From IMG/VR virus record IMGVR_UViG_3300025066_000019: a stretch of 64,000 nucleotides of DNA. One strand, written 5' to 3'. Shown here piece after piece: positions 18,201 through 64,000 of this stretch. This DNA comes from an uncultured virus (IMG/VR IMGVR_UViG_3300025066_000019) (lineage: Duplodnaviria; Heunggongvirae; Uroviricota; Caudoviricetes). The notes under the pieces were generated by a model. It was not told the origin of the DNA and made no database searches. It saw only the letters and a program-made list of their open reading frames with translations. Made by a program: the position numbers and the translations under genes. Numbering within the stretch: position 1 is the first letter of the stretch; each line of letters starts with the position of its first letter.

Positions 18201-18412
18201 GCTAATCCTCACAAAAAAAATTCCACTAGACCACTAGACCACCAACTAGACAGTTGGTACAATGCTATTAGACGAAAACGAAAACGCGAAAATGAGGGAA
18301 TCAAAAATGTTAGGCTATCTAGTAGAAATTCTTAAAAAACAAGCCGAAAACGAAAACGCGAAAACTACCGAAAACGAAAACGAAAACTAACCCCCCCTTT
18401 TGGAGAAATGCT

Positions 18413-19198: not shown

Positions 19199-19291
19199 CC
19201 CCTACGGGGGGGGGAGGGTAACACCTAACCCCCCAAGGGTGGGGGCAGGACGGTTCAAGTTAATTTCAAGTTTTTTCAAGGGAATTTCAAA

Positions 19292-19615: not shown

Positions 19616-19709
19616 CACCCCCCCGAAAGGGAGACGCCGAATGAGAGCCCCCCGCCTGGGGGGTTCGACTTACAGTTTCTTTTTTTCACCCCCACCAACG
19701 AGGTATATC

Positions 19710-19919
19710 ATGTTGTGTCAAATCGAAGGCGTAAAAATGGACAAGCGTAAAACTTTCGTAAAGGAGATTACCGCCCCCTCCCTTCGGGTGTTGAAAAAAC
19801 ACCAAGCTGACTACCACCAAAGGGGGACTACCGCCACCCTCTGTGGTGGCCCCACTGTAGGGTGGTGGCTGAATGTTCGTACCCTTGTCAAGGAAGATGA
19901 CATAGAGGTAAACGAGTAA
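19710..19919 (+). CDS. Hypothetical cassette protein
   Basis: GAGGT RBS after repeat 1; TAA begins repeat 2. Confidence 0.65.
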   Translation: MLCQIEGVKMDKRKTFVKEITAPSLRVLKKHQADYHQRGTTATLCGGPTVGWWLNVRTLVKEDDIEVNE

Positions 19920-20011
19920 CCCCCGAAAGAGGGAGACGCTGAATGAGAGCCCCTCACATGGGGGGCTCGACTTACAGTTTCTTTTTCACCCCTAAAACGA
20001 GGTATAAGACT

Positions 20012-20302
20012 ATGGACAAGCGACTAGCAGAAATTGAAGCACGATTAGAATGGATGGATGAGAATTACCACGGTTGTGATTGGTGTTGTGGGGGGGGAGA
20101 CGAGGAGAGGAGGGAGCTACTAGAGGAGAGGGGGAAACTAGTCGAGGCAATCAAGGTTTCGACCCGTACCCCCCAAAAGTATGTTTGTGATAAATGCGAG
20201 GAGGAAACAAACGAGTTGTTCGAGCCCCCCAAAGGAGGGGAAGTGTGTGAATACTGTTACAAAAAGGAATTAGAACAGAGAAATTATCGAGACATGCAAT
20301 AA
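20012..20302 (+). CDS. Hypothetical Cys-rich cassette protein
   Basis: GAGGT RBS; CDWCC and two CxxC motifs; TAA begins repeat 3. Confidence 0.7.
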   Translation: MDKRLAEIEARLEWMDENYHGCDWCCGGGDEERRELLEERGKLVEAIKVSTRTPQKYVCDKCEEETNELFEPPKGGEVCEYCYKKELEQRNYRDMQ

Positions 20303-20392
20303 CCCCCCAAGAGAGGGAGACGCTGAATGAGAGCCCCCCGCTGGGGGGGTTCAACTTACAGTTTCTTTTTCCCCCCTAAAAGGAGTAGTTTG

Positions 20393-20701
20393 ATGCCTAC
20401 CTATAACGAAATTTTGTTGCAAGCCCAACAGGAACATGCCGAATGCGGTATTGTGGTTTCAATCGAGAACTCCCCCCCGGTTGACAATTTTATGGCAATC
20501 GAGGTTGAGACCCTCCAAAAGTGGGGTCCGATGACTATCTATAATTTCGGTATTCACTGGCGAGAATACGATATTGTGACCGATAGTTATGGCGAATCCA
20601 ACGAAAGATTGAACATTGTAACCTACGGACCAACCCCCACTATAGAGGGGGGCAAGGTTGTCGGCTATGATTTTGATTGCTACACTTGTTATGCTTCCTA
20701 A
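20393..20701 (+). CDS. Hypothetical cassette protein
   Basis: AAGGAG RBS; TAA begins repeat 4. Confidence 0.7.
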   Translation: MPTYNEILLQAQQEHAECGIVVSIENSPPVDNFMAIEVETLQKWGPMTIYNFGIHWREYDIVTDSYGESNERLNIVTYGPTPTIEGGKVVGYDFDCYTCYAS

Positions 20702-20789
20702 CCCCCCGAAAGAGGGAGACGCTGAATGAGAGCCCCCCGCTGGGGGGGTTCGACTTACAGTTTCTTTTTCCCCTACTAGAGAGGTAGTC

Positions 20790-20927
20790 ATGGACCCCTA
20801 CAAATTACTATGTCAATTACTGGAACATTTCGAGGCAGAATTCAGAAACCCCTCCAATGGGGTATCTTACAAGTGTGCCTTGATGCTAGGAATTGAAGCA
20901 TTGAAGCGTATCAGACCCTTTATGTAA
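20790..20927 (+). CDS. Hypothetical 45-aa cassette protein
   Basis: GAGGT RBS after repeat 4; MDPYKLLCQLL...; followed by terminator. Confidence 0.55.
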   Translation: MDPYKLLCQLLEHFEAEFRNPSNGVSYKCALMLGIEALKRIRPFM

Positions 20928-20942
20928 CCCCCCAAATGGAAA

Positions 20943-20975
20943 AGGCCTCACCCCTCTGGGGTGGGGTCTTTTTTT
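20943..20975 (+). terminator. Intrinsic terminator ending cassette array
   Basis: AGGCCTCACCCC-TCT-GGGGTGGGGTCT + T tract. Confidence 0.8.
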
Positions 20976-21089
20976 ATGCACTGGCCCTGACTCCCCACCT
21001 ATGGGTGGGTGTACTACCCCACCTAACCCCGTCGCACCCGCACCCCCAAAAGGAGGGGGCAAAAACCTGCCCCTCTCCCTGACTCCCTA

Positions 21090-21275
21090 CTATCGAGGGG
21101 GGAGCGAACCCCCTGAGCCATGATATGCCAATCGACCAAAATAAAATTCCTCGGATTTTACTTCCACCCTCACATCGGGGGAGGGGGTATAAGCAAGCGA
21201 CAAAGTGGCGGGGGTAGCACAACCCCCCGAAAGAAGTATAGCCGAACAGATGAGCATTGCAAGTAAAATTCGCAT
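21090..21275 (-). CDS. Small putative lipoprotein
   Basis: MRILLAMLICSAILLSGG-C signal/lipobox-like start; AAGGA RBS. Confidence 0.5.
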   Translation of the reverse strand: MRILLAMLICSAILLSGGCATPATLSLAYTPSPDVRVEVKSEEFYFGRLAYHGSGGSLPPR

Positions 21276-22261
21276 TTTCGTTTTCCTTGTGTGAGTTGAT
21301 TACCTTCCTACTTATATCATCGACAATCGAGAGGGAAAGCATTAGGGAATATCAAAAAATTTTGGATGGGCTCTGACTCCCCCACTCTGGGTGGTATCCT
21401 CGGCACTTGTGCATAAATGCCTAGGAAACGTAACTGGCTCCCCCACTCTGGGTGGTATCACCTAACCCAACAATTTCGCTCGGGGGGTGTGGGGTGCCAC
21501 CATACCCCAGAGGAGGGGGTTCGGCTCTTACTGGCTGACTCCCCCCTTGTGGGTATCATATTATTCTAATGGTGGGGGTTGACAGAATGACGACGATATG
21601 CTTTACCCATACTGATGGGGGGTGCGTTCGCACTGGCTCTGACTCCCCCCTTTTGGGTGTGTGTACCACCCAATATAGGGGGCTCACACCATAACGACAG
21701 CCAGCGAAAACGACGCCCTGACTCCCCCCTTGTGGGGAGTACCAGCTAACCCAACAATTTCGTCCAATGGGGGGTGGGGTGACCCCCATCCCAATGGTGG
21801 GGTATTGACAGAATGACGACCATTTGCTATAATATAGGCACAAGAGGGGGGGAAGAGGGGTTGGTTAAACTGGGTCATCCTGATGGATTGGGCAGTTTCC
21901 ACCCCTTCCACCCTCGATTTGACAAAATGACGACGATTTGCTATAACTAGGGCACAAGGGAGATAGTCTGAGACACGAATAAGCAAGTGAACAAGATGAT
22001 GATGTGCGAGGTCTCACGCCTCGGGGTCGCTTCTTTCTTTACAATTACCGCACGCTCTCGTCCTAGGCGGGATGACGCTGACGGAACCTTGGAAAGAATG
22101 AGCCCAGCATGTGAGAAAGATTGCACAAAGTCTGACGGGAATACAACACGAGCCAAAGTAGTCAAAATGGGTAAGATGGCCATCCCCATAAAAAACGAAA
22201 CCGCCTTGTTTGACCCGTCTGTTTGCTGTTTTTACAATTTCATTTTCGGGAGAAAATCAAG

Positions 22262-22474
22262 ATGCCTGCGAAACTCAAGAGTCAGTTTGTACCCGCCCGC
22301 CGCGAAACCCTCCAAATGGGGGACACGGTTCGACGAGTCCTGGCAGACGGAAGTCTGTCGGCCCCCCTAGCAGTGGGGCGTGAAGACGGGAAGTTCGCTC
22401 TGGTTACAGAGCACGGTTTGAAGTTCGCTTACCCCCGACATGGGGGGCTTGTGAGACGACTAGTCAAAGGGTAG
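22262..22474 (+). CDS. Hypothetical protein
   Basis: GGGAGA RBS, MPAKLKSQF. Confidence 0.6.
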   Translation: MPAKLKSQFVPARRETLQMGDTVRRVLADGSLSAPLAVGREDGKFALVTEHGLKFAYPRHGGLVRRLVKG

Positions 22475-22538
22475 TCAGAACGGGGGAGGGGCACTTTTCT
22501 GTTCGGCTATAACGAAACATTTTTTGGGAGTTAAGACG

Positions 22539-22904
22539 ATGCTGCGAACAATGGACGATTTGGTCACAATTCAACGCATGTTTGAAATGACTGACGACAA
22601 GGGGCAACAACGAGCATTGCGAACAATCGCACGAACGATTTTCGATGAAGTTTTCCCCGCTGTTCCAAGTGTAATGCTGGCGAGACGACTTCCGAGTGTC
22701 GCCCCTCACACTTATTCGATGCTCGACGGAACCGACCTGCGGAAACTGTTCACCATGGAGGAAATGGAGCAGTGGGTTGACAACAAAAAAATTGGGGTCA
22801 TCAAGCTTGTTAAGAGCCGCACCGGAATGAATCTGATGGATGCCAAACATTATGTCGAAGACCACTTGAAGTTCATCCCCTATTCGGGGCAAACCACCTT
22901 TTAG
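22539..22904 (+). CDS. Protein with ribosomal L7/L12 C-terminal-like domain
   Basis: KKIGVIKLVKSRTGMNLMDAKHYVED matches the L7/L12 CTD pattern. Confidence 0.65.
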   Translation: MLRTMDDLVTIQRMFEMTDDKGQQRALRTIARTIFDEVFPAVPSVMLARRLPSVAPHTYSMLDGTDLRKLFTMEEMEQWVDNKKIGVIKLVKSRTGMNLMDAKHYVEDHLKFIPYSGQTTF

Positions 22905-22948
22905 AAGGGAGGCACGTTTTCCTCTAATTTCACCGCGAAACTAAAACC

Positions 22949-22976
22949 AGGCCCCTCGAAAGAGGGGTCTTTTTTT
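22949..22976 (+). terminator. Intrinsic terminator
   Basis: AGGCCCCTC-GAAA-GAGGGGTCT + T tract. Confidence 0.85.
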
Positions 22977-23428
22977 GTGCCTGTCGTCTGACTCCCCCCT
23001 TGCGGGGGTGTCCTACCCCACCTAGGTGGGTCGCACCAATCACAAAGCCAGCGGCCTGACTCCCCCCTTGTGGGTTGTCCCAGCCCACCCATCACTTTCG
23101 CGATTTTCTAATGGGGGGTATGGTAATAGCCAGCGGTGGGGGTTGACAAAACAAACAGAACATGGCTGACTCCCCGCCTCTGGGGGGTACTACCTAACCC
23201 TTCAATTTCCGCCGGGGGGTGGGGTGACCCCCACGCCAATGGTGGGGGGTTGACAGAATAGAGGTAAAATGCTATAATATAGGCATAAGAGGGAGGATGG
23301 GAGTCGCGGGGCTGACCCTGATGGGTAGGCCGCTCTCCCCGCCCTCGGGGGGTGTTGACAGAATAGCGTCAAGTTGCTATAATTTAGGCATCAAGGGGAG
23401 TCAAGTCAAACGCTTGGGAGAACAAGCT

Positions 23429-23731
23429 ATGAGTGAGGAAAGAACAGTCTGTTCGACGTTCCATATCGTCGAGCATCAGTATGGGAACATGCGTCTAGAG
23501 AACGAACAGGAAATCCCGCAGCACCTATTTGAAGTAACTGTGTCCGCCCCCTGGATAGGGGAGGATACAATCCACGTCTTGGCGGCATCCGAAGAGGAAG
23601 CGTCGTGTCAGGCTGATTGCAGATGGGGCATTTCGTACTACAGTATGGACAAGCTGGCCCTTGCGTCCATAACTAAAACCGTCAAGCAAATGCCGATGTT
23701 GGCAAGGGGGTGGTCTGGAATCACGTTCTAA
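23429..23731 (+). CDS. Hypothetical protein
   Basis: GGGAGA RBS after tandem promoters. Confidence 0.65.
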   Translation: MSEERTVCSTFHIVEHQYGNMRLENEQEIPQHLFEVTVSAPWIGEDTIHVLAASEEEASCQADCRWGISYYSMDKLALASITKTVKQMPMLARGWSGITF

Positions 23732-23879
23732 AATGGGAATGAGTTGACCCACTCGACGATTAGCAAGGTCTAACGTGACCAAAATCCAACACCCCCCAAT
23801 ATGCCTATGGCCTGGGGGTGAGGTGAGGTCAGAACCGCCTAGCTCGGTTTGCACGTAAGCTGGTCGTTTTCCGTTTAAC

Positions 23880-23915
23880 GCCCGTATCAGGTAAATTCCT
23901 GGTGCGGGTTTTTTT
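23880..23915 (+). terminator. Intrinsic terminator
   Basis: CCCGTATCAGG-TAAATT-CCTGGTGCGGG + T tract. Confidence 0.8.
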
Positions 23916-24260
23916 GCGTACTTCTGGCTCCCCCCTTTTGGGTGTGTGTAACACCCAATCTGGGTGGCTCGCACCTATAAGCATAGCCAGCGGCCTGACT
24001 CCCCCCCAACGGGGAGTACCACCTAACCCAACAATTTCGTCTTTCGGGGGGTGGGGTGACCCCCATACAACATGGGGGGTATTGACAGAATGAAGGGTAA
24101 ATGCTACAATATAGGCATAAGAGGGGGGTGGGACGGGAGACGGGGCTGACCCTGATGGGTAGACCTCTCCCCCCTATCCTCGGGGTGTTGACAGAACAGA
24201 GTCGAAATGCTATAAATGAGGTATCAAGGGGAGTCACTAGTCTTAGTCTGGGAGAAAGTC

Positions 24261-24527
24261 ATGGAAATGACCTTAGGACGTTTTTTACACCAAATGGGGG
24301 GTCACACCGGAATGGGATGTGGCTATCTAGTCCCCGCCTGTGGGGGGGATGAGAACCCCACGATGTTCACATCACCGTGTGGCATGTGGAAAGAATGGCT
24401 GCTATACATGTGGAACGTCCGAACGGGCGACCATGTGTGGGTAGACCTTAAGGGTCGGGAATTTCGCCTACCTGAGGACGTTTTCAAGTCAGGTCAGGTC
24501 ACTAGCGGGGGGTTTGTAAACGAGTAA
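24261..24527 (+). CDS. Hypothetical protein
   Basis: GGGAGA RBS after tandem promoters. Confidence 0.6.
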   Translation: MEMTLGRFLHQMGGHTGMGCGYLVPACGGDENPTMFTSPCGMWKEWLLYMWNVRTGDHVWVDLKGREFRLPEDVFKSGQVTSGGFVNE

Positions 24528-24747
24528 AGCCGAAAAGTCAAGGTCACCAATATACCGGGTGAAAACTAGTTGAGTAGCCCGGTATACTGACCTATGGTTA
24601 ATCCCGTCTCGCTTCTTCTAAACGCCTTTGAGCTATTAGGATGCTTGGCAATGACAAGCGATGTTGGTGTAAGTCCAACTCGGGACGGATATACCGATTT
24701 GACAAAATGAGGGGATAATGTTACAATCTAGTCATGGGAGAAACAGT

Positions 24748-25050
24748 ATGTGTGACGACAAATCAGTGATTAAGGAAGATAGGGAACCGGGTTGGCGTGG
24801 CAGCGAGCATGTTATCGTGACATGCGACTGTGGGCAGAAAATCAAGCGGTACGCCGATGAGAACGGCGAATATTACCACAATACGGTTTGCCCGCGATGT
24901 GACCGTACCTCTTCTGGGGGGAACTATCGCACCGGGGTGCTGTCTGCTGGTTGGATGAGCCGGTCGGCTGTTGATTCAAGTCAACGGGAGTATGAGCGTC
25001 AGATGTTTGATTCTGATATGAACCAGATGTATGGAAGGGGGAATTGGTAA
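24748..25050 (+). CDS. Hypothetical zinc-ribbon protein
   Basis: GGGAGA RBS; CDCG and CPRC. Confidence 0.65.
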   Translation: MCDDKSVIKEDREPGWRGSEHVIVTCDCGQKIKRYADENGEYYHNTVCPRCDRTSSGGNYRTGVLSAGWMSRSAVDSSQREYERQMFDSDMNQMYGRGNW

Positions 25051-25206
25051 ATGGACATGAGAGGATGGCGAGTTTACCTAAACAGGCGACTAATCGACAT
25101 TGTGTTTTATCGTTCTAAATACAGTGCCGAATACGTCAAAGAATCCCTAATCGAACATGATGGGTACAATCCCGATATTCATGTGATGTTGGACAGAGCA
25201 ATATAA
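25051..25206 (+). CDS. Small hypothetical protein
   Basis: Abuts previous stop; WRVYLN..LIDIVFY...SLIEHDGY. Confidence 0.55.
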   Translation: MDMRGWRVYLNRRLIDIVFYRSKYSAEYVKESLIEHDGYNPDIHVMLDRAI

Positions 25207-25727
25207 CCTCAGAAAAGGAGCATTATGGATTTGACAATTAATTTAGAGCCATGGGCGGCGGCTGTGCTGTTCCTGGTAATCGCCTGGGCGGTTGGCGTCA
25301 CCGCCTTCGCCTTTGTGGAAAAATGAAATTCTCCCCGCCCTGTCTAGGTCTCCCACCTAGTCGGGGCTTTTTTGCGTACACGCCTGACTCCCCTCCTTTG
25401 GGGGCGTGTCGCACCCAATCTGGGTGGGTCGCACTATAAAGAAAGCCAGCGGCCTGACTCCCTCCTAACAGGGGGTCTTACCTAAACTAACAATTTCGCC
25501 AAATGGGGGGTAGGGGGTTCCTCCATAGCTCAGAGGAGGGGGGTTGACAGAATGAGGGTTAAATGGTACAATTAGGGCATAAGAGGGAAGGGGACGGGAA
25601 ACGCGAGGCTGACCCTGATGGGTAGCTCGCTTCCCCCCTGACCGAAGGGTGTTGACAGAATGATGACGGAATGGTATAAATGGGGCATAAGAGGGGAAGT
25701 CACAAGTCACTTGTTTGGGAGAACATT

Positions 25728-26024
25728 ATGAGTAGTCGCGTGATGGATGCTATCGACACCGTGGAAAAACGGTTGACGGGGAAAATGACACCTGAGGAGC
25801 TAAATGTTGCCTCCAAGTCGCTCAATATCGACTTTCAGGATATGTGCGAATTTCAGGAAATAAAAAGTCTGGCAGTTGCCAACGGGATTCTTACTCCTCA
25901 AGAGGGGTCTGAAATCTACTGTCGAGTGGGGCATAGTCCCAAGACGTTCAACAATCAGCCCTTTTGCGTGAAGTACGGAATTACGGCTATCATTGCGAGC
26001 GTGAGCAAGCAGTTGACAAAATAA
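25728..26024 (+). CDS. Hypothetical protein
   Basis: GGGAGA RBS. Confidence 0.65.
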   Translation: MSSRVMDAIDTVEKRLTGKMTPEELNVASKSLNIDFQDMCEFQEIKSLAVANGILTPQEGSEIYCRVGHSPKTFNNQPFCVKYGITAIIASVSKQLTK

Positions 26025-26083
26025 CGGGGAAGTGTTACAATCTGGGTATCAAGTCACAAGTCACTTTGTTCGGGAGAAACAAA

Positions 26084-26668
26084 ATGGAAGGTACAAGTCA
26101 CAGCGGCTACCTACGAGATATGTTTGCGTCACCGGCTGCACTGTATGAGGCAGTCGAATACCTGAAGGACGTTATCGAGGAGCAAGCGATTGAATTCGAT
26201 GCCATCGTCGTTCGGGGGGTGTCGGGGGCAGTCATCGGGGGGGCTTTAAGTCTGGCCCTGAGGAAACAGTTGACGGTAGTCCGCAAGAGGGGGGTGGATT
26301 GCCACTCCGAAATCGTGGGCCAATGTGAGGGGTTGTTACACGCCCCCCACAAGTACCTGATAGTTGACGATTTTGTGGCAACGGGTAAAACACTCGCCCA
26401 CATCGTCGCAGAAGTGGGGCTAGGGAATGCGATGGCTGAGTGTGTCGGCTTTATTCCCTACCACAACGATTATCGGGATGGGGAAGTTCGGGATTTGAAC
26501 CAAGCCACGCATCGGCTTATGCAAGCGGCGATGGCTGGCAAGTTTGACCCTACGGATGGGAGTGTTGACGACGATTGGGATAGGGCTTGGCACGCTGGGG
26601 AAGCGGAACGCTTTGAGGAGTATCTCCGCAAGGCTGGTGCATTACTAGAGGAGGAACCAACAGAATGA
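26084..26668 (+). CDS. Phosphoribosyltransferase-domain protein
   Basis: PRPP-binding loop YLIVDDFVATGKTL; RGVSG and VVRK motifs. Confidence 0.85.
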   Translation: MEGTSHSGYLRDMFASPAALYEAVEYLKDVIEEQAIEFDAIVVRGVSGAVIGGALSLALRKQLTVVRKRGVDCHSEIVGQCEGLLHAPHKYLIVDDFVATGKTLAHIVAEVGLGNAMAECVGFIPYHNDYRDGEVRDLNQATHRLMQAAMAGKFDPTDGSVDDDWDRAWHAGEAERFEEYLRKAGALLEEEPTE

Positions 26669-27336
26669 TGTTTTACAAAGTGGGGGGTTGCGTCCGTGAT
26701 GAAATCATGGGCGTCAACTCCAAGGATATTGACTACACTGTAGTCGGTGAATCGTTTGAAGCGATGAAATTAGAAATTGAGAATCGAGGGGGTCAAATCT
26801 TCCTTGAGAAACCTGAATTTCTAACCATTCGAGCGAAAGTCCCCGGTATGGGGGCGTGTGATTTTGTTCTAGCCCGTCAGGATGGTGACTATAGCGATGG
26901 TCGCCACCCCGAAAGGGTGGAGCCAGGAACTCTTGAAGATGACTTGGCCCGTCGTGACTTCACGATGAACGCAATCGCCCAAGGGGAAAACGGTGGAATC
27001 ATCGACCCCTACGGTGGGCGGTTTGATATTGCCCGCAGGGTAATCGTGGCAGTCGGGAATCCTTACGACCGATTCAAAGAGGACTATCTAAGGATGTTGC
27101 GGGCTGTACGGTTTGCAATCACCAAGGATATGAAACTATCGCAGGACGTTAATGACGCTATCGTAGTGTTAAGGCGTCACATCAGCGAGGTAAGTGTCGA
27201 GCGAATCCGCGAGGAATTGTACAAGGCATTTATGCACGACACTTTGAAAACTATCGCTCTACTGAGCGAATTGAAACTACTTGAGGAGGTGTTTGATAAA
27301 ACTCCCCTCAGGTTAAAACCTACTTTGGAATCCTGA
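26665..27336 (+). CDS. cca: tRNA nucleotidyltransferase (CCA-adding/poly(A) polymerase family, short form)
   Basis: VGGCVRD, KDIDY, DLARRDFTMNAIA, EDYLRMLRAVRF, ERIREEL; no HD domain. Confidence 0.9.
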   Translation: MMFYKVGGCVRDEIMGVNSKDIDYTVVGESFEAMKLEIENRGGQIFLEKPEFLTIRAKVPGMGACDFVLARQDGDYSDGRHPERVEPGTLEDDLARRDFTMNAIAQGENGGIIDPYGGRFDIARRVIVAVGNPYDRFKEDYLRMLRAVRFAITKDMKLSQDVNDAIVVLRRHISEVSVERIREELYKAFMHDTLKTIALLSELKLLEEVFDKTPLRLKPTLES

Positions 27337-28251
27337 GAGATTCTCCCCGCCCTGCTTGGTTCTCCCGCCAAGTGGGGCTTTTTTCGTGGGCGTCTGACTC
27401 CCCCCTCGTGGGGGGATGTCCCACCCCACCTAGGTGGGTCGCACCAATCGCACTAAGCACAAAGCCAGCGGTTGACTCCCCCCTTCTGGGGTGTCCTACC
27501 CCACCCATCAATTTCGGTTTTTTCCGAATGGGGGGTATGGTGGTAGCCACATGGGGGGTTGACAGGATGAATGAAATATGGTTGGCTCCCCCCTTCTGGG
27601 TGTAAGCTAAATCCGAACGGGGGTGTAAGGAAAAACCACATGGGGGGCACCCGAATGGATTTAACTAACAGACCAAAGGAGGGGGTACGGTATACGCTGA
27701 CTCCCCCCCTCTGGGTTGTCCCAGCCCACCCATCAATTTCGGTCGGGGGGTGGGGTGACCCCCATCCAATGAGAGGGGTGTTGACAGAATGGGGGCTAAA
27801 TGCTATAATAGGGGCATAAGAGGGAAGGGCAGAGCAGAGCGAACCGAACAGGTTGCCTGCCCCCTACCTCGGGGGTGTTGACAGAATGACGACGATTTGG
27901 TATAAATGAGTCATACAAGGGAGGACACGACCAGTGGAGCACTGAAAGGGGACCGGATGAACCCCCTGGAATAGGTGGAAAGTCGGATAGGCCACTACTA
28001 TGTCTAGAAACTAAGTCAGCAACAATGGGAGGACGGGCCAATGGGCTACTAAAAGGGGACCGATATACACCCCTGGGATGGCTGAAGTCGGATAAGCCGG
28101 ATGACTTGACAGAATGACGACCAGATGTTATAATTTTCTACAGAGCCCATCGGATGAGAACCGACCCTGGCAACTACCCCCTGATAGGGGGAGCGGTTAG
28201 ACAGTATGTCCTTTCGGCTCTAATTTGACAAAACAAGGGAGAGATGATACA

Positions 28252-41535: not shown

Positions 41536-41628
41536 GTGGACATGGTCTAGTGGACAAGACGCCCCTCGACGGTAGGATTTAATTACCCCTACCGAGGGGA
41601 GACTAGGGTTCGACTCCCTATGTCCTAC
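41536..41628 (+). ncRNA. tRNA-like RNA with elongated anticodon arm
   Basis: D-arm GTCT-AGTGGACA-AGAC, T-arm TAGGG-TTCGACT-CCCTA, GGACA/TGTCC acceptor pairs; anticodon arm replaced by CCCCT..CGGTAGG/CCTACCG..AGGGG. Confidence 0.7.
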
Positions 41629-55158: not shown

Positions 55159-55709
55159 TGAAGAGAGAAACAGTAGCAGAAAATAAATGGATGGGTATGT
55201 ATCAGATTCTAGATGATAGACCCTATACCTACGCCAGTCGTCGTCCAGTTGGTAAACAACACATGGATGGTGGTCAAACCGCCGATGCCGTAACCGTGAT
55301 TGCCTTACATGGTGAAGAGATTGTCTTTATCAAGAATAATAATCGTCCTGTGATTGGTGAGCCCCAGTTGGAACTTCCCGCTGGAATGATTGATGAAGGC
55401 GAGACAGTGATGGAGGCAGGTATTCGTGAACTTAAGGAAGAGACCGGATTAACCTTTAATGAAGAAGATAATCCTCTGGTTATCCCCAAGTGTTTTAAGT
55501 CGGCAGGTTTCACTGACGAGAGTACAGGTCTGCTTATCGGCTCTTGTTTTGGAGAACCATCGAAAGAATTCCAAGAAGATAATGAAGATATTGATGTTAT
55601 CATCTGTGGACCACAAGACCTAAAGCGTATCATTGAGGAAGAAGGATGTCAGATGTCTATTTCTGTAGGTATCTTTTATGCGATTGCAACTTCTCGATAC
55701 CCCTCTTGA
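55158..55709 (+). CDS. Nudix hydrolase (ADP-ribose pyrophosphatase-like)
   Basis: Nudix box ELPAGMIDEGETVMEAGIRELKEETG. Confidence 0.9.
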   Translation: MKRETVAENKWMGMYQILDDRPYTYASRRPVGKQHMDGGQTADAVTVIALHGEEIVFIKNNNRPVIGEPQLELPAGMIDEGETVMEAGIRELKEETGLTFNEEDNPLVIPKCFKSAGFTDESTGLLIGSCFGEPSKEFQEDNEDIDVIICGPQDLKRIIEEEGCQMSISVGIFYAIATSRYPS

Positions 55710-55777
55710 CAAACCAACGACCCTTTGCTATAATATTCATATAACAACCTGTGACCTTTAACGAGTGAGGAAACGAA

Positions 55778-56101
55778 ATGGGCAAGTATGCCGATTCAAT
55801 CAAAGCTTCGCGGCAACACATGTCGCCACAAAAAATCGCGGAAGAGAAGAACGCGAGGTGTCGGGCACGTAATGCCCAACGACGCAAGGAAGTACAGGAG
55901 GAAGTTAGTGAGCGATTGCTACACTGGCAGTCTCTTTCTCTTGAGCAACAGTTGGAGCAGTTAGATGCTCGACTGGGGAAGGACGTGGGGGCTGTTAAGC
56001 AGCGAGCCCGCATTCTCCACTCTATCGCTGATAGAGCCAACAAGGCTATTGCCAATGACGAGGCTCGTCGTGCTAAGAAGAAAAAGAAGAAAAAGAAATG
56101 A
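55778..56101 (+). CDS. Hypothetical basic helical protein
   Basis: GAGG RBS after promoter; poly-Lys tail. Confidence 0.65.
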   Translation: MGKYADSIKASRQHMSPQKIAEEKNARCRARNAQRRKEVQEEVSERLLHWQSLSLEQQLEQLDARLGKDVGAVKQRARILHSIADRANKAIANDEARRAKKKKKKKK

Positions 56102-56424
56102 GCAAGTGGTATATAACCTCTGGTAGTATCAAGAGCATCATTACGTCTGACCACCCGTTGGACGCTGCTGCTGAGGCACTTAGTAAGGCCAAAGAAGGAA
56201 CCTTTGTAGAGAACTTTATCTATGTTGACCAACGTGGACATAGACCTCTCTCATGTGAACCATGGGCTGACGAGGATGGTATTCGTCATCCTACTGAAAA
56301 GTCTAGTGATGACTTAGTCACTAAGATTGGTGAACAGAATTACTTGGCTCCTCAGTTTGCTTATTCTACAGAAACAGTATTTGAAAGGATGGGTTGGAAT
56401 GCCAAGAGGGACAAAGACCTGTAA
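56098..56424 (+). CDS. Hypothetical protein
   Basis: ATGA overlap. Confidence 0.6.
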   Translation: MSKWYITSGSIKSIITSDHPLDAAAEALSKAKEGTFVENFIYVDQRGHRPLSCEPWADEDGIRHPTEKSSDDLVTKIGEQNYLAPQFAYSTETVFERMGWNAKRDKDL

Positions 56425-56902
56425 AAATCAATCCTGTGGTGCAGCTAATGGCCCAAGGTCATTCTTCTGCAAGGAATGTGGTGAACCTTTTGTGGTTAAA
56501 GGTAAGAAGTCAACGCCAATTATGAAGGCAGCGACCGATACCAATGACTACAAGGAACACTTCGACGAGATTGATTATAGCCGAGACGAGTCCAACGTCA
56601 GAAACTTTGACGGTACTGCTCGCTGCTGGGTTAGTAAGTGCGGCAAATTCCGCATTAGACAGTACAAGACCTTCCAGGGTATTGACGTAGGTCATTCTCG
56701 ACGTACTATTCTGGAGTCTAGGATTGAACACCCCGCTGAGTTCGGGCCTAAGTGGAAGATTGTCTCTCGTCATGTTGTCTTTAAGTCTGCTGGTCGTCGT
56801 TATGTAAGAATGGCACGACAACAAAAGATTAGGAAGACAGCAGAAGAACAACGTCAAGAAAGTTTTAATGCAAGACTGAGTCATCGTCTAACAAGAAAGT
56901 GA
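56399..56902 (+). CDS. Zinc-ribbon protein
   Basis: MPRGTKTCKNQSCG..NGPRSFFCKECG. Confidence 0.65.
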   Translation: MPRGTKTCKNQSCGAANGPRSFFCKECGEPFVVKGKKSTPIMKAATDTNDYKEHFDEIDYSRDESNVRNFDGTARCWVSKCGKFRIRQYKTFQGIDVGHSRRTILESRIEHPAEFGPKWKIVSRHVVFKSAGRRYVRMARQQKIRKTAEEQRQESFNARLSHRLTRK

Positions 56903-56906
56903 TACC

Positions 56907-57374
56907 ATGTTTAGACCCCTGGTGCTACTATTGTTATTATGTGCTACAGCCTTTTCTTATGACGGGAAGAATGAGAATCCCTACGTCGTTAAAGACAACA
57001 TAGATAAGGTTGAGAGAAACAATTTCTATGACGACGAGGGGAGACTGGTATTTGTCCAGTTTATTTTCTGGGAAGAAACCCCTCATTGGCATAGTCGCCC
57101 ATATAACGTAATGGCCTGGAGGCTAGACAAGGGAATCCCACGTCCTTCTTATATGTATGACACTGGTAGTGTTTATAGATATAGAATGATTTGGAATGAT
57201 GGCGGAACAATGAGAGACATCAGGTGTAAAATCTTTACAGAGACATGGACACAAGAGGATGTAGAGATACTTGAAAGAGAGTTTTTACCAAAAGAGCATC
57301 GGAAGGGGTTATTGAAACTCCGAAAGGCTCGTCCAGAAATACGTATGGAAGATTTACTTCTTCCTCCTAAGTAG
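56907..57374 (+). CDS. Secreted hypothetical protein
   Basis: Signal peptide MFRPLVLLLLLCATAFS. Confidence 0.65.
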   Translation: MFRPLVLLLLLCATAFSYDGKNENPYVVKDNIDKVERNNFYDDEGRLVFVQFIFWEETPHWHSRPYNVMAWRLDKGIPRPSYMYDTGSVYRYRMIWNDGGTMRDIRCKIFTETWTQEDVEILEREFLPKEHRKGLLKLRKARPEIRMEDLLLPPK

Positions 57375-57383
57375 GAAAATACC

Positions 57384-57692
57384 ATGGCATTAGACAGACA
57401 GGGTGAATGCCCAGAATGTGGAGTCAGTTGGGATGGTGGATGTATCTTCGAAACCTGTATCGCTGAAAATAATTGGCAAAAACACCACGATACAGAACAA
57501 GCGTATATTGCACATCTTAAAGAATTTTACAGTCCGCCGTATCGCTGGGGGAGAATGATTGGTATTCAACTAGGATACGACCACCCAAATCATTATGACG
57601 GGGTCTCTTACTGGCAATGCCCCGATTGCAAAGCTACCTGGAATCGTTTTACTGAAGAACTTGAGGAAATACCTAGACATGTTAAAGATTGA
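57384..57692 (+). CDS. Zinc-binding hypothetical protein
   Basis: CPEC...YDGVSYWQCPDC. Confidence 0.65.
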   Translation: MALDRQGECPECGVSWDGGCIFETCIAENNWQKHHDTEQAYIAHLKEFYSPPYRWGRMIGIQLGYDHPNHYDGVSYWQCPDCKATWNRFTEELEEIPRHVKD

Positions 57693-58152
57693 CATTGAAC
57701 ATCTACGACAGAAAGACCTAACAGATGTTTTAGCGATTGAAGAAGAAGCCCATGACTATCCTTGGTCGGCGGGTGACTTTAATAAACACGCTATGCACCT
57801 ATCCACTCGACAGTTTACAGCAACAGTAGACGGTGAGATTGTCGGCTATATTGCAATCAATACTGACAGAGAGAGGGTTAGGACTATTGAGAACATTGCT
57901 GTTCGTAAAGACATGAGAAGGAAAGGGATTGCGACATACTTAGTTAAGGAGACATGCGACTTTTTTCCAGAAGAGTTTGATATTGTTCAGGCAATGGTTA
58001 ATGAAACCAATGATGTTGCTATTGGATTCTTCAGTAAAGGAATTGGTTGCAAGGCTGTACTAGTTAAAGAACCCTACGAGGAAATCGACCGAGACGGATA
58101 CTTATTTTCACGATTCTGGAATGGAGATAGAGAACTTGTCGAGGCAAATTAA
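57679..58152 (+). CDS. GNAT acetyltransferase (RimI-like)
   Basis: IAVRKDMRRKGIA acetyl-CoA motif; VNETNDVAIGFF. Confidence 0.85.
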   Translation: MLKIDIEHLRQKDLTDVLAIEEEAHDYPWSAGDFNKHAMHLSTRQFTATVDGEIVGYIAINTDRERVRTIENIAVRKDMRRKGIATYLVKETCDFFPEEFDIVQAMVNETNDVAIGFFSKGIGCKAVLVKEPYEEIDRDGYLFSRFWNGDRELVEAN

Positions 58153-58158
58153 CATAAA

Positions 58159-58620
58159 ATGTTTTACTTACTTACGGAGATACTGCTAGAGATGACACCG
58201 AAAACGATACCTGTACTTAAACTACAAGAAGATGCCGTACTGCCACACAAAGACGATGGGGACGCTGGCTGGGATTTACACTCAACAGAAGACATCAAGT
58301 GCCCCTCACAGGACGCTGTTTTAGTTTCCACTGGAATTGCCATGGAAATCCCCGAGAACCACGTTGGTCTTTTATGGGACCGCTCAGGGATGGCATCTAA
58401 GAAGAAATTTCATCGGATGGCAGGGGTTATCGACTCCTCTTATCGTGGTGAGATTAAAGTCCTACTACAAAACAATAGTCACTTCACTCAGTACATAGCT
58501 GCGGGAGATAAGATTGCTCAGATACTTATTCAGGAAGTGCCAGAGTTTGAAATGAAGGAAGTGAAAGAGTTGAACGAAACTAAACGAGGTGATGGCGGTT
58601 TCGGCTCTACAGGAGAATAG
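58159..58620 (+). CDS. dut: dUTPase (true start may be 58192)
   Basis: AGWDL, RSG, GVIDSSYRGEI, IAQ, RGDGGFGSTG. Confidence 0.95.
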   Translation: MFYLLTEILLEMTPKTIPVLKLQEDAVLPHKDDGDAGWDLHSTEDIKCPSQDAVLVSTGIAMEIPENHVGLLWDRSGMASKKKFHRMAGVIDSSYRGEIKVLLQNNSHFTQYIAAGDKIAQILIQEVPEFEMKEVKELNETKRGDGGFGSTGE

Positions 58621-58716
58621 GGTGGCGACTGGTGACTGGTGTTGCCCTTGGTCTACAAAACCAATGAGGGGTGCGTAAACCGCATCCTTGGTAGGTTCGA
58701 TTCCTATCCGCCACCG
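58621..58716 (+). tRNA. tRNA-Sec-fold tRNA with ACA anticodon
   Basis: 8-position acceptor, 6-bp D-stem with 4-nt loop, long variable arm, 5-bp T-stem, G73; anticodon loop CTACAAA. Confidence 0.8.
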
Positions 58717-58751
58717 CTTGACGAATGAAGGTTGAGGTGTTAAGATAAGAT

Positions 58752-59600
58752 ATGAGAAGAAACAGACTAAACCGAATGCGTACTTACTTGGTAGGTGCAA
58801 TGGAATTCGCTCCTGATGGAGGTGTTCAATGGCGAGAAAGAATTACTCCCTGGCTTAATAGTCGAGGTGTATCTGTCTTTAACCCATGTGATAAGCCCTG
58901 TGATGTAGGAAGCGAGAAACCAGAGGATAGGTTGCTGCGACAGGCAATGCTTGCTCGTGGACAGTATGACGAATTCCTAGATGACGCTGGTCCACTTCGT
59001 CCTTACGACCTAAGAATGGTTGATATATCAGATTTCCTGATTGTTCATATTGATACTGACCTTCATGCTTGTGGTACATACGAAGAGATTACCACAGCAA
59101 ACAGACAGAAGAAACCTATCATTATTCATTGTAAGCAAGGCAAGAAGGGTCTTCCTCCTTGGTTGTTTTTGATGCTTGGTAAGTCTCATGTTACAGTATT
59201 TGATTCATGGACAGAGGTTGAGAGCTATCTTGATTATATTAATTCATACGACTCCATTGACCACTTGAAACGTTGGGTGTTCTTTGATTTAGACAAAGTT
59301 GATAAACCTGCTGAGGAGGCGTTTAGAAAACGTCAGTTTAAACTTGATTTTCGTGAAAGGATTAATCCTGTGTATGTTGGAGCAGAAGCGGATATTGGTG
59401 ACAAGGTTGTTTATAGTAATGTCAATGCTGGTTACGAAGGTGACCAAGATGATGCTGCTGAACACCTAATCATGAATGCAGAGTATACTATTTCTTCTGT
59501 ATTGGTTGAAAAATGGAGTACTCGTATATACCTTGACGAGGCTCCTGGTATTGCCTTTAACAGTGTTATGTTCTCCCCAGCCTTAGTAGAGGAAGAGTGA
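58752..59600 (+). CDS. Nucleoside 2-deoxyribosyltransferase-like protein with C-terminal extension
   Basis: YLVGAM...WR...FNP...DL..VD.SD...GTYEE. Confidence 0.75.
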   Translation: MRRNRLNRMRTYLVGAMEFAPDGGVQWRERITPWLNSRGVSVFNPCDKPCDVGSEKPEDRLLRQAMLARGQYDEFLDDAGPLRPYDLRMVDISDFLIVHIDTDLHACGTYEEITTANRQKKPIIIHCKQGKKGLPPWLFLMLGKSHVTVFDSWTEVESYLDYINSYDSIDHLKRWVFFDLDKVDKPAEEAFRKRQFKLDFRERINPVYVGAEADIGDKVVYSNVNAGYEGDQDDAAEHLIMNAEYTISSVLVEKWSTRIYLDEAPGIAFNSVMFSPALVEEE

Positions 59601-59920
59601 TGCCTTACATAGAACAAGGTAAGCGTTTATATATTGATGACGACATTAACGAACTTAAACGTGGTTTAATTAGCAACTTCGGTAGTGAAGACATTGAAGG
59701 GGCTCTGCATTACGTAATAGCTCAACTCTTAGAGGTTATTCCTCAATCGTCCAGTCTGTCTGGTGAGTGGAGATATAAATACATTAATCGTGCGTCAGGA
59801 GTGCTAACACAAGTACAAGAGAACTTCGACGAACGTATCGTTAAACCCTATGAACGAATGGCGATGGAAAAGAATGGTGACATCAGTAGCTATGCAAAGT
59901 TTGACGATTCCCGTAAGTAG
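59597..59920 (+). CDS. Hypothetical phage protein
   Basis: MPYI...G.LHY...PYE...KNGD. Confidence 0.7.
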   Translation: MMPYIEQGKRLYIDDDINELKRGLISNFGSEDIEGALHYVIAQLLEVIPQSSSLSGEWRYKYINRASGVLTQVQENFDERIVKPYERMAMEKNGDISSYAKFDDSRK

Positions 59921-60179
59921 TCTCGACTGGAAGTTTCTCACCAAGGTAATTCAACAGCTTGGTAGACTGACAGAGGAAGAGATTGACCCTATAACGTGGC
60001 GTAAAGCTTTTAATAAGGTTGGCGTAACATATGGTGGAGACCTTACTCCTCTTGCTGTTAAAGCCGAAGAGAAGCCTTATCTACTTATTACATTTACAAC
60101 CCCTAACCTGAAGACTGTCAAGCAGCGTATTACCTTTAGTGGTGCTTACGAGCCCGTCAGATTCGAGGCACCTCAGTGA
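59892..60179 (+). CDS. Hypothetical protein
   Basis: Overlapping ORF. Confidence 0.55.
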   Translation: MQSLTIPVSSLDWKFLTKVIQQLGRLTEEEIDPITWRKAFNKVGVTYGGDLTPLAVKAEEKPYLLITFTTPNLKTVKQRITFSGAYEPVRFEAPQ

Positions 60180-60451
60180 ATATCCTCTTACATGTTCTAG
60201 TATTCCTATTTGTGACGTTTATGTACTCAGGTCTGAGTGCTGTTACTGCCTTATGGACAAAACAGGTGGTGAATGGTAAGGCATGGGGAAGTTTTATGAC
60301 AGGAAGTTTGTCGAGATTATTAGCATTGGGTGGGTTGTCCTTTGCGTTCTTATTTGAGCAATTCGTCGTAAGTGCTTTCGTAGGAATGGTTTTGGGCGAG
60401 GGATTAGGTTCCTATCTCGTGGTGAAGTACCATATGATTGATAGCAAGTAA
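60176..60451 (+). CDS. Small multi-pass membrane protein
   Basis: Three hydrophobic segments. Confidence 0.6.
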   Translation: MNILLHVLVFLFVTFMYSGLSAVTALWTKQVVNGKAWGSFMTGSLSRLLALGGLSFAFLFEQFVVSAFVGMVLGEGLGSYLVVKYHMIDSK

Positions 60452-60522
60452 TTATCCCTTTTGTGGTCTTTCGGTGTATAATACAGTGTAAGACAATTAT
60501 TCTGTACAGGAGAACAAGAGAC

Positions 60523-62796
60523 ATGCGTAAAATCCTAATGGCTTTCATGCTAGTTCTCGCAATGTCACTCCCTGCTGCGGCTTACCCACTGAGTTTGAAC
60601 GAGATTGCACAAGCAACCTGCCGTGTTGGCGTTTCTGGTGCTTCTGGTTCTGGTACTGCTATTCATGAAGATAAGGACTATGTGTACATTCTAACCAATG
60701 CTCACGTAGTTGGCAACTCTCGGTCGGGTTTAGTTGAGTTTTTCCCAGGAGGTAGGAAAACAGCTAAGATTCCAGCAAGTGTCATTTGGCGAGAACACCA
60801 AGCTAACACAGATGTAGACTTCGCTATTATGAAGGTAGCTAAGAATACATTGTATGGGTACAAGCCTAGGATTATCCCCCTGGCTCCCTCGTCCTATCAA
60901 ATCAAAGCAGGTCAATATATTGCTTCGGTTGGACACCCTGCTGCTCGTTGGGCACAGGCGTGGGAAGGTTACGCATTAAGAGACGGCAGTAGTCGAGTAT
61001 TATTTACTCCTCCACCTCTGGGTGGACAGTCTGGTTCTGGCATCTTTGTTAATATTGATGGTTATACCTATCTCGGGGCAGTTCTTACATGGAGAATTGG
61101 AAGAGATGGTAGAGACTCAAAGGGTTATGACCTAGCTCAAGGTGGTGCGATTCCATCAAGTACCTTTGATAAGGTGTTTGGTGGTAAGGTTTCGTATACC
61201 CCAGAGAGAACTCCCTATAATTACCGTGAGGTTAAAACCGTAATCACCAAGATTGGTTATGCTAAAGACTCAAATGGTAAATGCTGGCCGATAACATATT
61301 ATGACGATGGTAGCTATGAGGCTAAGGTTCCACCAGGAACCCAAATAGTTCAATGGAACTTGAGCCAGTCTCAATGTAATCCATTTGGTTCCCGCCCTGG
61401 TCCAGGGTTTTTAGATGGAATCAATCCTTTTACTCCTCCTCGTCGTAATCCTCCTAGTCCTAAGCCAGAAGCACCGGCTCCTCCGTATATTGACCCAGGA
61501 AAACCTGATGTTGTTCCTCCTCCATCTATTGGTGGGTTTGGTCATGGCACCCCAGGCAATGGTATTTATGGTAGTCTTGAAGAGTTGAAGAAGAAGAATG
61601 AAGAACTGCTTAATCAGAATAAGGGGTTGTCTAATCAGTTGACAGATGCCCAGAAGGCACTGGATATTGAACGCACTCACTTGTCGGCTCTAAAAGACAG
61701 TCTTGATGCCGCACAGGCAGACCTTACTATTAAGGACGGTCAGATTAAGAGACTTGAGGGTTCAGTGAAAGACTTATCTTCCAAAGTGGAAGGTTTAATT
61801 AGTCAAATTGGTCTTAAAACTGCTATCATCAACGATAATGCTGGTAAAATTACTGAACTAAAAGATAAAGCTAAGGCTGATGCAACAGCTTTGGCTACTG
61901 CAAAAGGTAACACTGATGTAGTAATAAAGAATAATGTGTCTCTTCAGACCCAGAAAGACCGACTCAAAAATGGATTATGGGGCGTGTCTGGGCTAAGTGG
62001 CGTATTATTACTAGTGGGGGGATGGTTCTACAGGAAGAAGCTTAGGCCGAAGCTTGATGGAGCCGCAGAGAATATCATTGATAAAGTAGAAGACAAGGTT
62101 GAAGATAAAATTGGCGGTTATCTTCCAGACGTTATTAAGGATTTTGGAGATGCTAAGCTTCATAATCTGAAAGACAAACTGTTTTCGAAAGTTGATGAAA
62201 AGCTTAATGCCGAGAAGGAAGAACTTGGTAAGATTGGTGATGTCCTAGGTAAGATTTCAACATTACTAGAGAAGACTGACGAAAGAATGACAACGATGGA
62301 GACTAAGGTATCCCTTGTTTCTGCCCCTGTCGTTAATGCACCTACTCAGGTAAGTATTGAGATTGAAAACCCTGTAATTCCGCCTGCTGACCCTGTCCCT
62401 GCTGAAGGGCTTAGACAGTTTGCAGAGTTATGGAAGGCAGAAGGGCAAGACCCCAAGAAATTGGCACTCTATGGTATTTTGTACCATGAGGCCGTCAACC
62501 TGCTTCGTAAGGGGCAGTTATATGTTAAAGGCAACGACCGTACACAGGGTCAGGAAGCCACCGCTAATAAATTGGACGAGTGGGTAGAGAATCAAATACT
62601 TACTCGACCAGCAGATGTTCTCTTGCAAGGTAATGAAGTAATCCACCAAGTAATGGTTGGTCATCTTTACCGTGAGGCAGTAGAGAAACTTCGAAACGGA
62701 GAATTCCCAGTGTTGGGAGCAAAGGAAACTGCTAATATCATCGACAGATGGGTACAGCAGGAAATGCTAAGACGAATGAACAAATCAGTAAGATAA
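60523..62796 (+). CDS. Membrane-anchored trypsin-like serine protease with coiled coil
   Basis: Signal peptide; LTNAHVV, D, GGQSGSG triad motifs; Pro-rich linker, coiled coil, TM helix, duplicated C-terminal motif. Confidence 0.85.
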   Translation: MRKILMAFMLVLAMSLPAAAYPLSLNEIAQATCRVGVSGASGSGTAIHEDKDYVYILTNAHVVGNSRSGLVEFFPGGRKTAKIPASVIWREHQANTDVDFAIMKVAKNTLYGYKPRIIPLAPSSYQIKAGQYIASVGHPAARWAQAWEGYALRDGSSRVLFTPPPLGGQSGSGIFVNIDGYTYLGAVLTWRIGRDGRDSKGYDLAQGGAIPSSTFDKVFGGKVSYTPERTPYNYREVKTVITKIGYAKDSNGKCWPITYYDDGSYEAKVPPGTQIVQWNLSQSQCNPFGSRPGPGFLDGINPFTPPRRNPPSPKPEAPAPPYIDPGKPDVVPPPSIGGFGHGTPGNGIYGSLEELKKKNEELLNQNKGLSNQLTDAQKALDIERTHLSALKDSLDAAQADLTIKDGQIKRLEGSVKDLSSKVEGLISQIGLKTAIINDNAGKITELKDKAKADATALATAKGNTDVVIKNNVSLQTQKDRLKNGLWGVSGLSGVLLLVGGWFYRKKLRPKLDGAAENIIDKVEDKVEDKIGGYLPDVIKDFGDAKLHNLKDKLFSKVDEKLNAEKEELGKIGDVLGKISTLLEKTDERMTTMETKVSLVSAPVVNAPTQVSIEIENPVIPPADPVPAEGLRQFAELWKAEGQDPKKLALYGILYHEAVNLLRKGQLYVKGNDRTQGQEATANKLDEWVENQILTRPADVLLQGNEVIHQVMVGHLYREAVEKLRNGEFPVLGAKETANIIDRWVQQEMLRRMNKSVR

Positions 62797-63564: not shown

Positions 63565-63968
63565 GGGCCATCACTGGTATCGACTGGATGGATTGAATTG
63601 TGAATTGCGTGTCGTGGTTGGTTAGTTGGCCACGTAAAAAGCTAACCGAAAATCTTAATTGCTAACACAAATAAGAACGTTATCGCCAATACCATCGCTG
63701 GTGTTGCTCCTCGTTTCGAGGGAAATAGCCTAAACGCCACAAGCGTTTCTGCTATCCGTTCCGTAGCTCTGGTTGCGTAACAAAGCCTTGGTCGGGCTAA
63801 ACAGACCAAACGTGTCGGCGTTACCGGCCTAGTCCCAACAATGTGTATGAGTGGGTAAAGACATCCATTACACTGACTTTGTTTGCTGAGTAAGATTCAA
63901 CAAACTATACACGTAGACGTTTGCGGTACAGACATAACAGGACTCGGGTTCGACTCCCGAATGGTCCA
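63565..63968 (+). ncRNA. ssrA: tmRNA
   Basis: GGGCCAT/ATGGTCC-A with G3.U70, CTGGTATCGAC 5' motif, T-arm TCGGG-TTCGACT-CCCGA, tag ORF 63661-63780 ending ALVA*; own promoter at 63524. Confidence 0.92.
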
Positions 63969-64000
63969 CTTGACAGAAAAGGTTTGAAATGGTAGAAAAG

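Follow-up and report, generated by a model that had tools for sequence, protein, structure and literature searches.

A selenocysteine-type tRNA gene with the anticodon ACA in a phage genome, and its possible role in recoding UGU

A stretch of 64,000 nucleotides from an uncultured virus of the Caudoviricetes (IMG/VR record IMGVR_UViG_3300025066_000019), called here the window, carries on its plus strand, at positions 58621-58716, a selenocysteine tRNA (tRNA-Sec) gene whose anticodon is ACA, the complement of the cysteine codon UGU, instead of UCA. The gene is real and intact, and structurally it is a tRNA-Sec that departs from its class in the anticodon only. An identical copy occurs in a second strain of the phage, and the same design is found within selenocysteine (sel) loci of bacteria. 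We tentatively favour the view that a phage-borne tRNA-Sec of actinobacterial build had its anticodon changed from UCA to ACA and may function in selenocysteine (Sec) recoding at UGU.

Using cmscan, positions 58621-58715 (+) matched the Rfam tRNA-Sec family RF01852 with 68.9 bits (E 5.5e-12; gathering score 47). Scores close to the cut-off call for caution, as tRNA-Ser(UGA) of Actinomycetota also reached 48-49 bits on RF01852; 68.9 bits is well above this level. Moreover, the 96-nucleotide RNA folded unaided into a cloverleaf of -43.2 kcal/mol, compared with a mean of -28.7 for shuffled sequences (z -4.27), and 0 of 200 shuffles were as stable. These values bear out the tRNA-Sec architecture that an earlier reading of the same DNA (the original prediction) had claimed. 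ARAGORN did not call this gene.

All parts of the cloverleaf could be placed on the plus strand from the fold, the Rfam alignment and a pairing check. The acceptor stem pairs GGTGGCG (58621-58627) with CGCCACC (58709-58715) over 7 nt; it is followed by an A8/C88 mismatch at position 8/88, and three linker bases separate it from the D stem. In the D arm (58631-58646), the 6-bp stem GGTGAC/GTTGCC includes two G.U pairs, and the 4-nt loop is TGGT. The anticodon arm (58648-58664) has a 5-bp stem and the 7-nt loop CTACAAA, in which the anticodon A34 C35 A36 occupies 58655-58657. The long variable arm (58667-58689) consists of a 9-bp stem with a 5-nt loop, and the T arm (58690-58708) of a 6-bp stem (G70-C88, G71.U87 and four Watson-Crick pairs) with the loop TTCGATT. 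The discriminator base G73 lies at 58716; CCA is not encoded, the next bases being CTT. D stem, D loop, long variable arm, anticodon and G73 are all as originally described.

The acceptor/T branch measures 13 bp, divided 7/6, both in the minimum free energy (MFE) fold and by direct pairing check, with G70 paired to C88; the Rfam alignment also admits an 8/4 reading in which one C is bulged, and the 7/6 call rests on the lower-energy fold. The stems named in the original prediction (7 acceptor pairs and the T stem GTAGG/CCTAT) are present, whereas its 8/5 division with an A.C pair gives way to 7/6. Among the features by which a tRNA-Sec is recognised, the gene has the 13-bp branch, the D arm of 6 bp and 4 nt, and the long variable arm with G73; in place of the anticodon UCA it has ACA.

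The gene is tightly packed. The TAG stop codon of a dUTPase gene (58159-58620, +; PHROG 135, E 1.8e-50; Pfam dUTPase) abuts its first base, and the next open reading frame (ORF) begins 35 bases past its end. Nothing resembling a terminator separates the dUTPase gene from the tRNA, nor does anything promoter-like lie immediately before the tRNA, which is probably cut from a transcript shared with dUTPase.

The A at position 34 is genuine. A metagenome contig, L156, which was found through its dUTPase, is 99.4% identical to window positions 55159-61617 (39 mismatches in 6459 bases), and its tRNA is identical to that of the window, ACA included. L156 was assembled independently and represents a strain that differs slightly, which makes a sequencing error very unlikely. 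The original prediction had itself named an error at 58655, with TCA as the true anticodon, as what would undo it; this is contradicted by L156, which has the same A although it departs from the window at 39 other positions, and the idea can practically be dismissed. On selection L156 is uninformative, because only ~0.6 differences are expected per 96 bases.

To our knowledge, very few organisms have naturally reassigned a sense codon to selenocysteine. Mukai et al. reportedly described, in Angew Chem in 2016, a tRNA-Sec(ACA) in Aeromonas salmonicida and close relatives, by which the Cys codon UGU becomes Sec. The anticodon of the A. salmonicida tRNA-Sec is listed as ACA, Cys-decoding (PMC5756416), and the Cys codon UGU of this species is described as recoded to Sec by selenocysteine insertion sequence (SECIS) elements, with a tRNA-Sec of complementary anticodon (PMC10778597). 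The passage on Aeromonas in PMC10573291 also cites the ACA/UGU variant and gives its tRNA-Sec a 12-bp acceptor domain. The viral finding has here a direct published bacterial precedent, the likeness lying in a tRNA-Sec body combined with ACA. There are two differences: in the bacterium Aeromonas, selA, selB and selD belong to the same genome as the tRNA, whereas the phage window is without any, and the 12-bp acceptor domain of Aeromonas (PMC10573291) contrasts, as far as descriptions can be compared, with the 13 bp (7/6) of the phage tRNA.

A second bacterial parallel came from a structural pattern for the ACA variant, run over one genome per species (185,579 species). It matched 41 places, 7 of which were tRNA-Sec-shaped, all of them in Streptosporangiales (Planomonospora, Herbidospora and Nonomuraea). 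Their RF01852 scores of 66.8-71 bits are comparable to the 68.9 bits of the phage gene. Aeromonas was missed by this pattern because it requires a TGGT D loop, and the loop is CGGT in 14 of 15 sampled Pseudomonadota; the same requirement held for the IMG/VR patterns described below, so that CGGT-type copies were missed in both collections. The Streptosporangiales copies have in common with the phage tRNA the loop CUACAAA, the TGGT D loop, G73, an acceptor stem of 7 bp next to an unpaired 8th position, and a T stem of 6 bp; the one ACA copy that was aligned (L184, Nonomuraea) is 65% identical to it.

These bacterial copies lie in a sel module, whereas the phage copy lies between the dUTPase gene and an unannotated ORF. 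Flanks were annotated for two of the seven loci (L133 and L123; the others are L122, L124, L141, L152 and L153). In Nonomuraea (L133:1560-6063), selB is directly downstream of tRNA(ACA) and selA beside it; in Herbidospora (L123:1561-4885), selB is again directly downstream, and a second tRNA-Sec copy, with UCA, is present elsewhere in the genome. On the other side of the tRNA, all seven loci carry a DUF6073 gene (Pfam E 1e-94). Its sole Cys codon is TGT in 7/7 loci, at a GC content of third codon positions of 0.86-0.89, and the other ORFs use overwhelmingly TGC. The nucleotides that follow this TGT are nearly invariant across the seven loci and three genera, and comprise rare codons. The arrangement DUF6073(TGT)-tRNA(ACA)-selB-selA may represent a compact UGU-to-Sec module, with DUF6073 as a candidate UGU-encoded selenoprotein.

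According to PMC13449736, the structural determinants in the Sec pathway are G73 together with the long variable arm, used by SerRS, the D arm of 6 bp and 4 nt, used by SelA, and the branch of 13 bp, used by SelB. Because every one of these structural features is present in the phage tRNA, serylation, conversion to Sec and delivery by SelB make up the simplest reading. The host SerRS would charge the tRNA with serine through the long variable arm and G73, and the host SelA, reading the D arm with its stem of 6 bp and loop of 4 nt, would convert Ser to selenocysteine. The host SelB, not EF-Tu, would then deliver it, by virtue of the 13-bp acceptor/T branch and the G.U at the second T-stem position, a pair that in E. 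coli tRNA-Sec is part of the EF-Tu antideterminant. Only those UGU codons of phage or host messages that have a SECIS hairpin behind them would receive it. With selenium or the machinery in short supply, UGU would be read as cysteine by the ordinary tRNA-Cys, and no termination would result; to a phage living where the water is poor in selenium, such a fallback would be of use. In this scheme we infer the charging, the conversion, the delivery by SelB and the UGU/SECIS target itself. A more specific form of the proposal is possible, if doubtful: the phage tRNA-Sec(ACA) would let the host SelA and SelB put selenocysteine at particular phage UGU codons, that is, a virus-run recoding of a sense codon, orthogonal to the host's UGA decoding and with Cys as fallback when marine selenium is scarce. 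Among the functions that the original prediction had offered, Sec at UGU appears the best supported, by analogy.

We compared the phage tRNA with those of bacterial phyla to see whose build it shares. In the genome samples, RF01852 matched above its cut-off in 114 of 151 Actinomycetota (an over-count that takes in tRNA-Ser at 48-49 bits; 94 genomes, unpublished ones included, scored at least 61 bits), 97 of 101 Desulfobacterota, 20 of 121 Cyanobacteriota, 15 of 151 Pseudomonadota and none of 121 Bacteroidota. After five sequences from unpublished genomes were dropped, identity to the phage tRNA averaged 0.62 in Cyanobacteriota (n=20, maximum 0.71), 0.61 in Actinomycetota (n=27, maximum 0.68), 0.57 in Desulfobacterota (n=20, maximum 0.69) and 0.53 in Pseudomonadota (n=15, maximum 0.59). 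No donor can be named from identity, because these values are too low.

It is architecture, not identity, that discriminates the phyla. A build that is 7/6 only, with an unpaired 8th position and a sixth T-stem pair, occurs in 16 of the 27 Actinomycetota sequences, 2 of the 15 from Pseudomonadota and none of the 20 from either Cyanobacteriota or Desulfobacterota. The exact arrangement of the phage, A8 with a G-C pair, was found in 8/27 Actinomycetota and 0/55 in the three other phyla. Mycobacterial tRNA-Sec genes are all described as having a 7-bp acceptor and a 6-bp T stem, and most of them as encoding CCA (Behra et al. 2026, PMC13449736). They agree with the phage gene in G73, in a D stem of 6 bp and in a 13-bp branch divided 7/6, and differ from it in that they have UCA and mostly an encoded CCA, whereas the phage gene has ACA and no CCA. 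The actinobacterial-type 7/6 build hints, with low confidence, at an actinobacterial donor or host.

Viruses also carry tRNA-Sec genes with the usual anticodon. The ACA-specific structural pattern matched 4 places in IMG/VR, none tRNA-Sec-like, whereas the same pattern with UCA matched 34; when 20 of these were given to Rfam, 15 were tRNA-Sec at 47 bits or more, two of them borderline at 47.4. Several of these viral tRNA-Sec(UCA) genes lie in phage-type tRNA arrays and several others at contig ends, a location that is expected for prophage borders at selC. The 7/6 build was seen in 7 of the 15. All the other viral tRNA-Sec genes that we found have TCA and are at most 65% identical to the window tRNA, and tblastx with the window gave no protein similarity. 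None of them is thus a close relative of the kind that the original prediction had in mind when it named TCA in all relatives as a second refuting result. The exact 3' half of the window tRNA had no match in IMG/VR, nor did the 282-aa protein encoded downstream have any relatives there. In the literature we found a single passing report of phage tRNA-Sec, in which 3 of 7 huge phages carry such genes (PMC10747093), and none of an ACA anticodon in a viral tRNA-Sec; PMC6409571 leaves Sec unmentioned. A virus-borne tRNA-Sec is thus not new, the likeness to these genes being one of tRNA-Sec type and carrier; as far as our searches reach, ACA in place of UCA on a viral tRNA-Sec is.

Some of the viral tRNA-Sec(UCA) genes deserve a separate mention. 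On low-GC viral contigs they were found in tRNA arrays (L413:2307-2581, L409:592-761, L418:545-790 and L397:103-4152), and L409, L413, L415, L418 and L425 carry one common tRNA-Sec sequence type with the 7/6 build. A 131-kb IMG/VR contig, G833 (L423:2485-2581 and L429:1267-2646), has a gene for a SelA of full length (477 bits), N-terminal tRNA-binding domain included, ~10 kb from a tRNA-Sec(UCA); the neighbouring ORFs are unannotated except for a non-specific endonuclease. The SelB wing domain was not found in the four viral records searched. Three further IMG/VR contigs (L304, L330 and L385) share an identical 87-nt stretch that is tRNA-like: its D stem is long, as in tRNA-Sec, its variable arm is long as well, the anticodon is GCA and the discriminator, by eye, is U; this is the identity pattern of the selC*/tRNA-ReC cysteine tRNAs.

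Phages related to ours by their terminase carry another tRNA with A34. An ordinary 7/5 tRNA-Ser with the anticodon ACU and the loop UUACUAA was found in 8 of 11 scanned loci (L081, L084, L088, L091, L095, L098, L099 and L100, near position 1500 of each locus). It appears that phages of this clade habitually carry A34 tRNAs to read U-ending codons.

A number of results weigh against Sec recoding at UGU, beginning with the window itself, which is 64 kb of the phage genome and in which the Pfam search covered 84 + 41 = 125 ORFs. Neither selA, selB or selD nor any known selenoprotein family was found by Pfam among these ORFs, in agreement with the absence of sel genes noted originally. By an ad hoc rule of our own, applied within the window, a SECIS-like hairpin followed 3 of 241 in-frame TGT codons, compared with 185 of 17168 other codons, which is no enrichment; the search for UGU followed by such a hairpin, which the original prediction had suggested as a check, thus gave no excess. 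The mean folding energy after TGT (-11.0) did not exceed the background (-11.7), and the 16 genes that surround the tRNA held no excess of hairpins over background. In a crude ORF set, the codon usage is TGT 241 versus TGC 100 and AGT 241 versus AGC 145. Because TGT is the usual Cys codon of the phage, codon choice cannot reveal a target. In the bacterial analogue, the fold after the DUF6073 TGT was no better than shuffles (z 0.38), so that SECIS support is weak there too.

The distribution of the gene and the question of the host add to these objections. When 30 terminase-related viral records (49-61% identity) were searched with RF01852, none had a match above the cut-off, the best (42-44 bits) being ordinary tRNA-Ser or tRNA-Leu. 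Of 26 dUTPase-related metagenome loci, 20 were scanned with Rfam, and tRNA-Sec was found in one, the near-identical L156. As far as the collections show, the tRNA gene is confined to one narrow lineage. The nearest cellular tRNA-Sec, 71% identical, is that of a cyanobacterium, and a BLAST search of the phage tmRNA (transfer-messenger RNA) against 301 Actinomycetota genomes, run without a positive control, gave no match. Finally, if the host decodes Sec at UGA, the phage tRNA cannot serve the selenoprotein genes of the host.

The alternative that survives best, although we regard it as unlikely, is that a captured tRNA-Sec no longer decodes, either as a drifting relic or as a decoy for the host SerRS, SelA or SelB that shuts down host selenoprotein synthesis. 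It would account for the lack of sel genes or of a visible target in the window and for the single narrow lineage, and a single U-to-A change at position 34 disables UGA reading while the protein-binding features are kept. Against it, the stems of the gene are all intact, its score equals that of the bacterial ACA copies in sel loci, and it fills the exact gap between two ORFs of a compact genome. The same ACA change is, moreover, embedded in sel loci of Streptosporangiales and is described in the published account of Aeromonas as functional (PMC10778597). As to a decoy, it has no known benefit.

Position 34 is also where the tRNA adenosine deaminase TadA acts when its substrate is an A, and the resulting inosine pairs with U, C and A. 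Were A34 converted to inosine by the host deaminase, UGU, UGC and UGA would all be read, and ordinary UGA/SECIS sites would be served too. The loop in fact has U33-A34-C35 as in tRNA-Arg(ACG), with A34 at the TadA substrate position, yet position 36 is A, whereas the natural substrate of TadA has G. No deaminase domain was found among the 125 window ORFs, and if A34 were generally converted to inosine, the tRNA-Ser(ACU) of the related phages would be expected to misread the Arg codon AGA. We consider this modification improbable.

There is a similarly slim chance that the tRNA is an EF-Tu-compatible serine tRNA, resembling the allo-tRNAs, that inserts Ser at UGU generally as a missense suppressor. 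Mukai et al. 2017 (PMC5389517) describe allo-tRNAs of which some place Ser at stop as well as sense codons of E. coli; phages, too, are among the carriers of such unusual tRNAs. The phage tRNA resembles them in its G73, its long variable arm, the tetraloop that closes its long D stem, and an anticodon that is not one for serine, but the definition of allo-tRNAs given in the same article is a 12-bp branch divided 8/4 or 9/3 (PMC5389517), as against the 13-bp 7/6 branch here. In addition, a phage with 241 TGT and 100 TGC codons would damage its own proteins. The branch length and this codon usage likewise disfavour the general Ser insertion at UGU that the original prediction had entertained. 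Like the allo-tRNAs, the selC* tRNA-Cys and tRNA-ReC have tRNA-Sec-like D and variable arms and odd anticodons, and some members of these groups are phage-borne (PMC5389517). An identity as selC* tRNA-Cys or tRNA-ReC was considered and rejected: it needs U73 with GCA or UCA, as stated in PMC5389517, and the phage tRNA has G73 and ACA.

Least probable among the functional alternatives, and very improbable in our judgement, is a cysteine tRNA that supplements the phage's preferred codon UGU: U-ending codons are indeed preferred (for Cys and for the AGT/AGC pair alike), and the relatives carry an A34 tRNA-Ser for AGU, but the tRNA has G73 and not U73, and its position 34 is not G, U73 and G34 being given as the main CysRS identity elements (PMC5389517), and by Rfam its body is that of tRNA-Sec, not of tRNA-Cys.

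If Sec recoding at UGU by this tRNA is real, viral selenoproteins would be invisible to annotation, since they would resemble proteins with ordinary cysteine codons, and phages would have a means to exploit the Sec pathway of the host or to tune it. In viral genomes, and perhaps in cellular ones, Cys codons could then conceal selenoproteins, and selenoprotein finders that seek an in-frame UGA would be blind to them. For synthetic biology, the tRNA would be a compact and portable means of UGU/SECIS recoding. The Streptosporangiales module, the viral contig with SelA and tRNA-Sec(UCA), and the tRNA-Sec genes in phage arrays point to Sec biology of viruses and actinobacteria that is absent from a 2026 selenoproteome review, in which phage, virus, UGU and Aeromonas do not appear.

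The phage itself has no close isolate relative: megablast and blastn of the window against INPHARED (50,697 phage records) gave no match. In IMG/VR, 598 relatives of its terminase were found, the best 80 of the 598 being 48-61% identical. Related records that CheckV rates 95-100% complete measure 143-159 kb, and the full phage genome is probably much larger than the 64-kb window. The phage is probably marine, because the relatives of its dUTPase come mostly from marine or ocean-survey records. Annotation of the window ORFs gave a large terminase (6417-8564, -), a major head protein by a weak match (568-1566, -), an HNH endonuclease, a sigma-70-like protein, a GDP-mannose dehydratase, a Nudix hydrolase and a GNAT acetyltransferase.

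Several other features of the window relate to tRNA. A short CCA-adding-enzyme-like protein of 223 aa is encoded at 26665-27336 (+), with a Pfam PolyA_pol head domain (E 2e-21) and an RNA-binding domain; it may help to mature those phage tRNAs in which CCA is not encoded. Two tRNA-Gln genes were found in the window by Rfam, as was a one-piece tmRNA at 63565-63971 (+) (103 bits), which ARAGORN missed. By eye, the tag frame of the tmRNA starts from a resume codon GCT at 63661 and runs for ~39 codons, which is unusually long, to end in ...VALVA and a TAA stop. At 41536-41628 (+), ARAGORN called a 93-nt 'tRNA-Arg (ACG)' that stays below the Rfam gathering scores and folds no better than shuffles (z -1.4); either the call is false or the tRNA carries an insert.

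Lastly, the region at about 16000-28000 of the window differs in composition, with a GC content of 0.49-0.53 compared with 0.41-0.45 elsewhere. It contains many short ORFs and strong G/C-rich hairpins, in which CCCC...GGGG and GACCCACC-type motifs recur.

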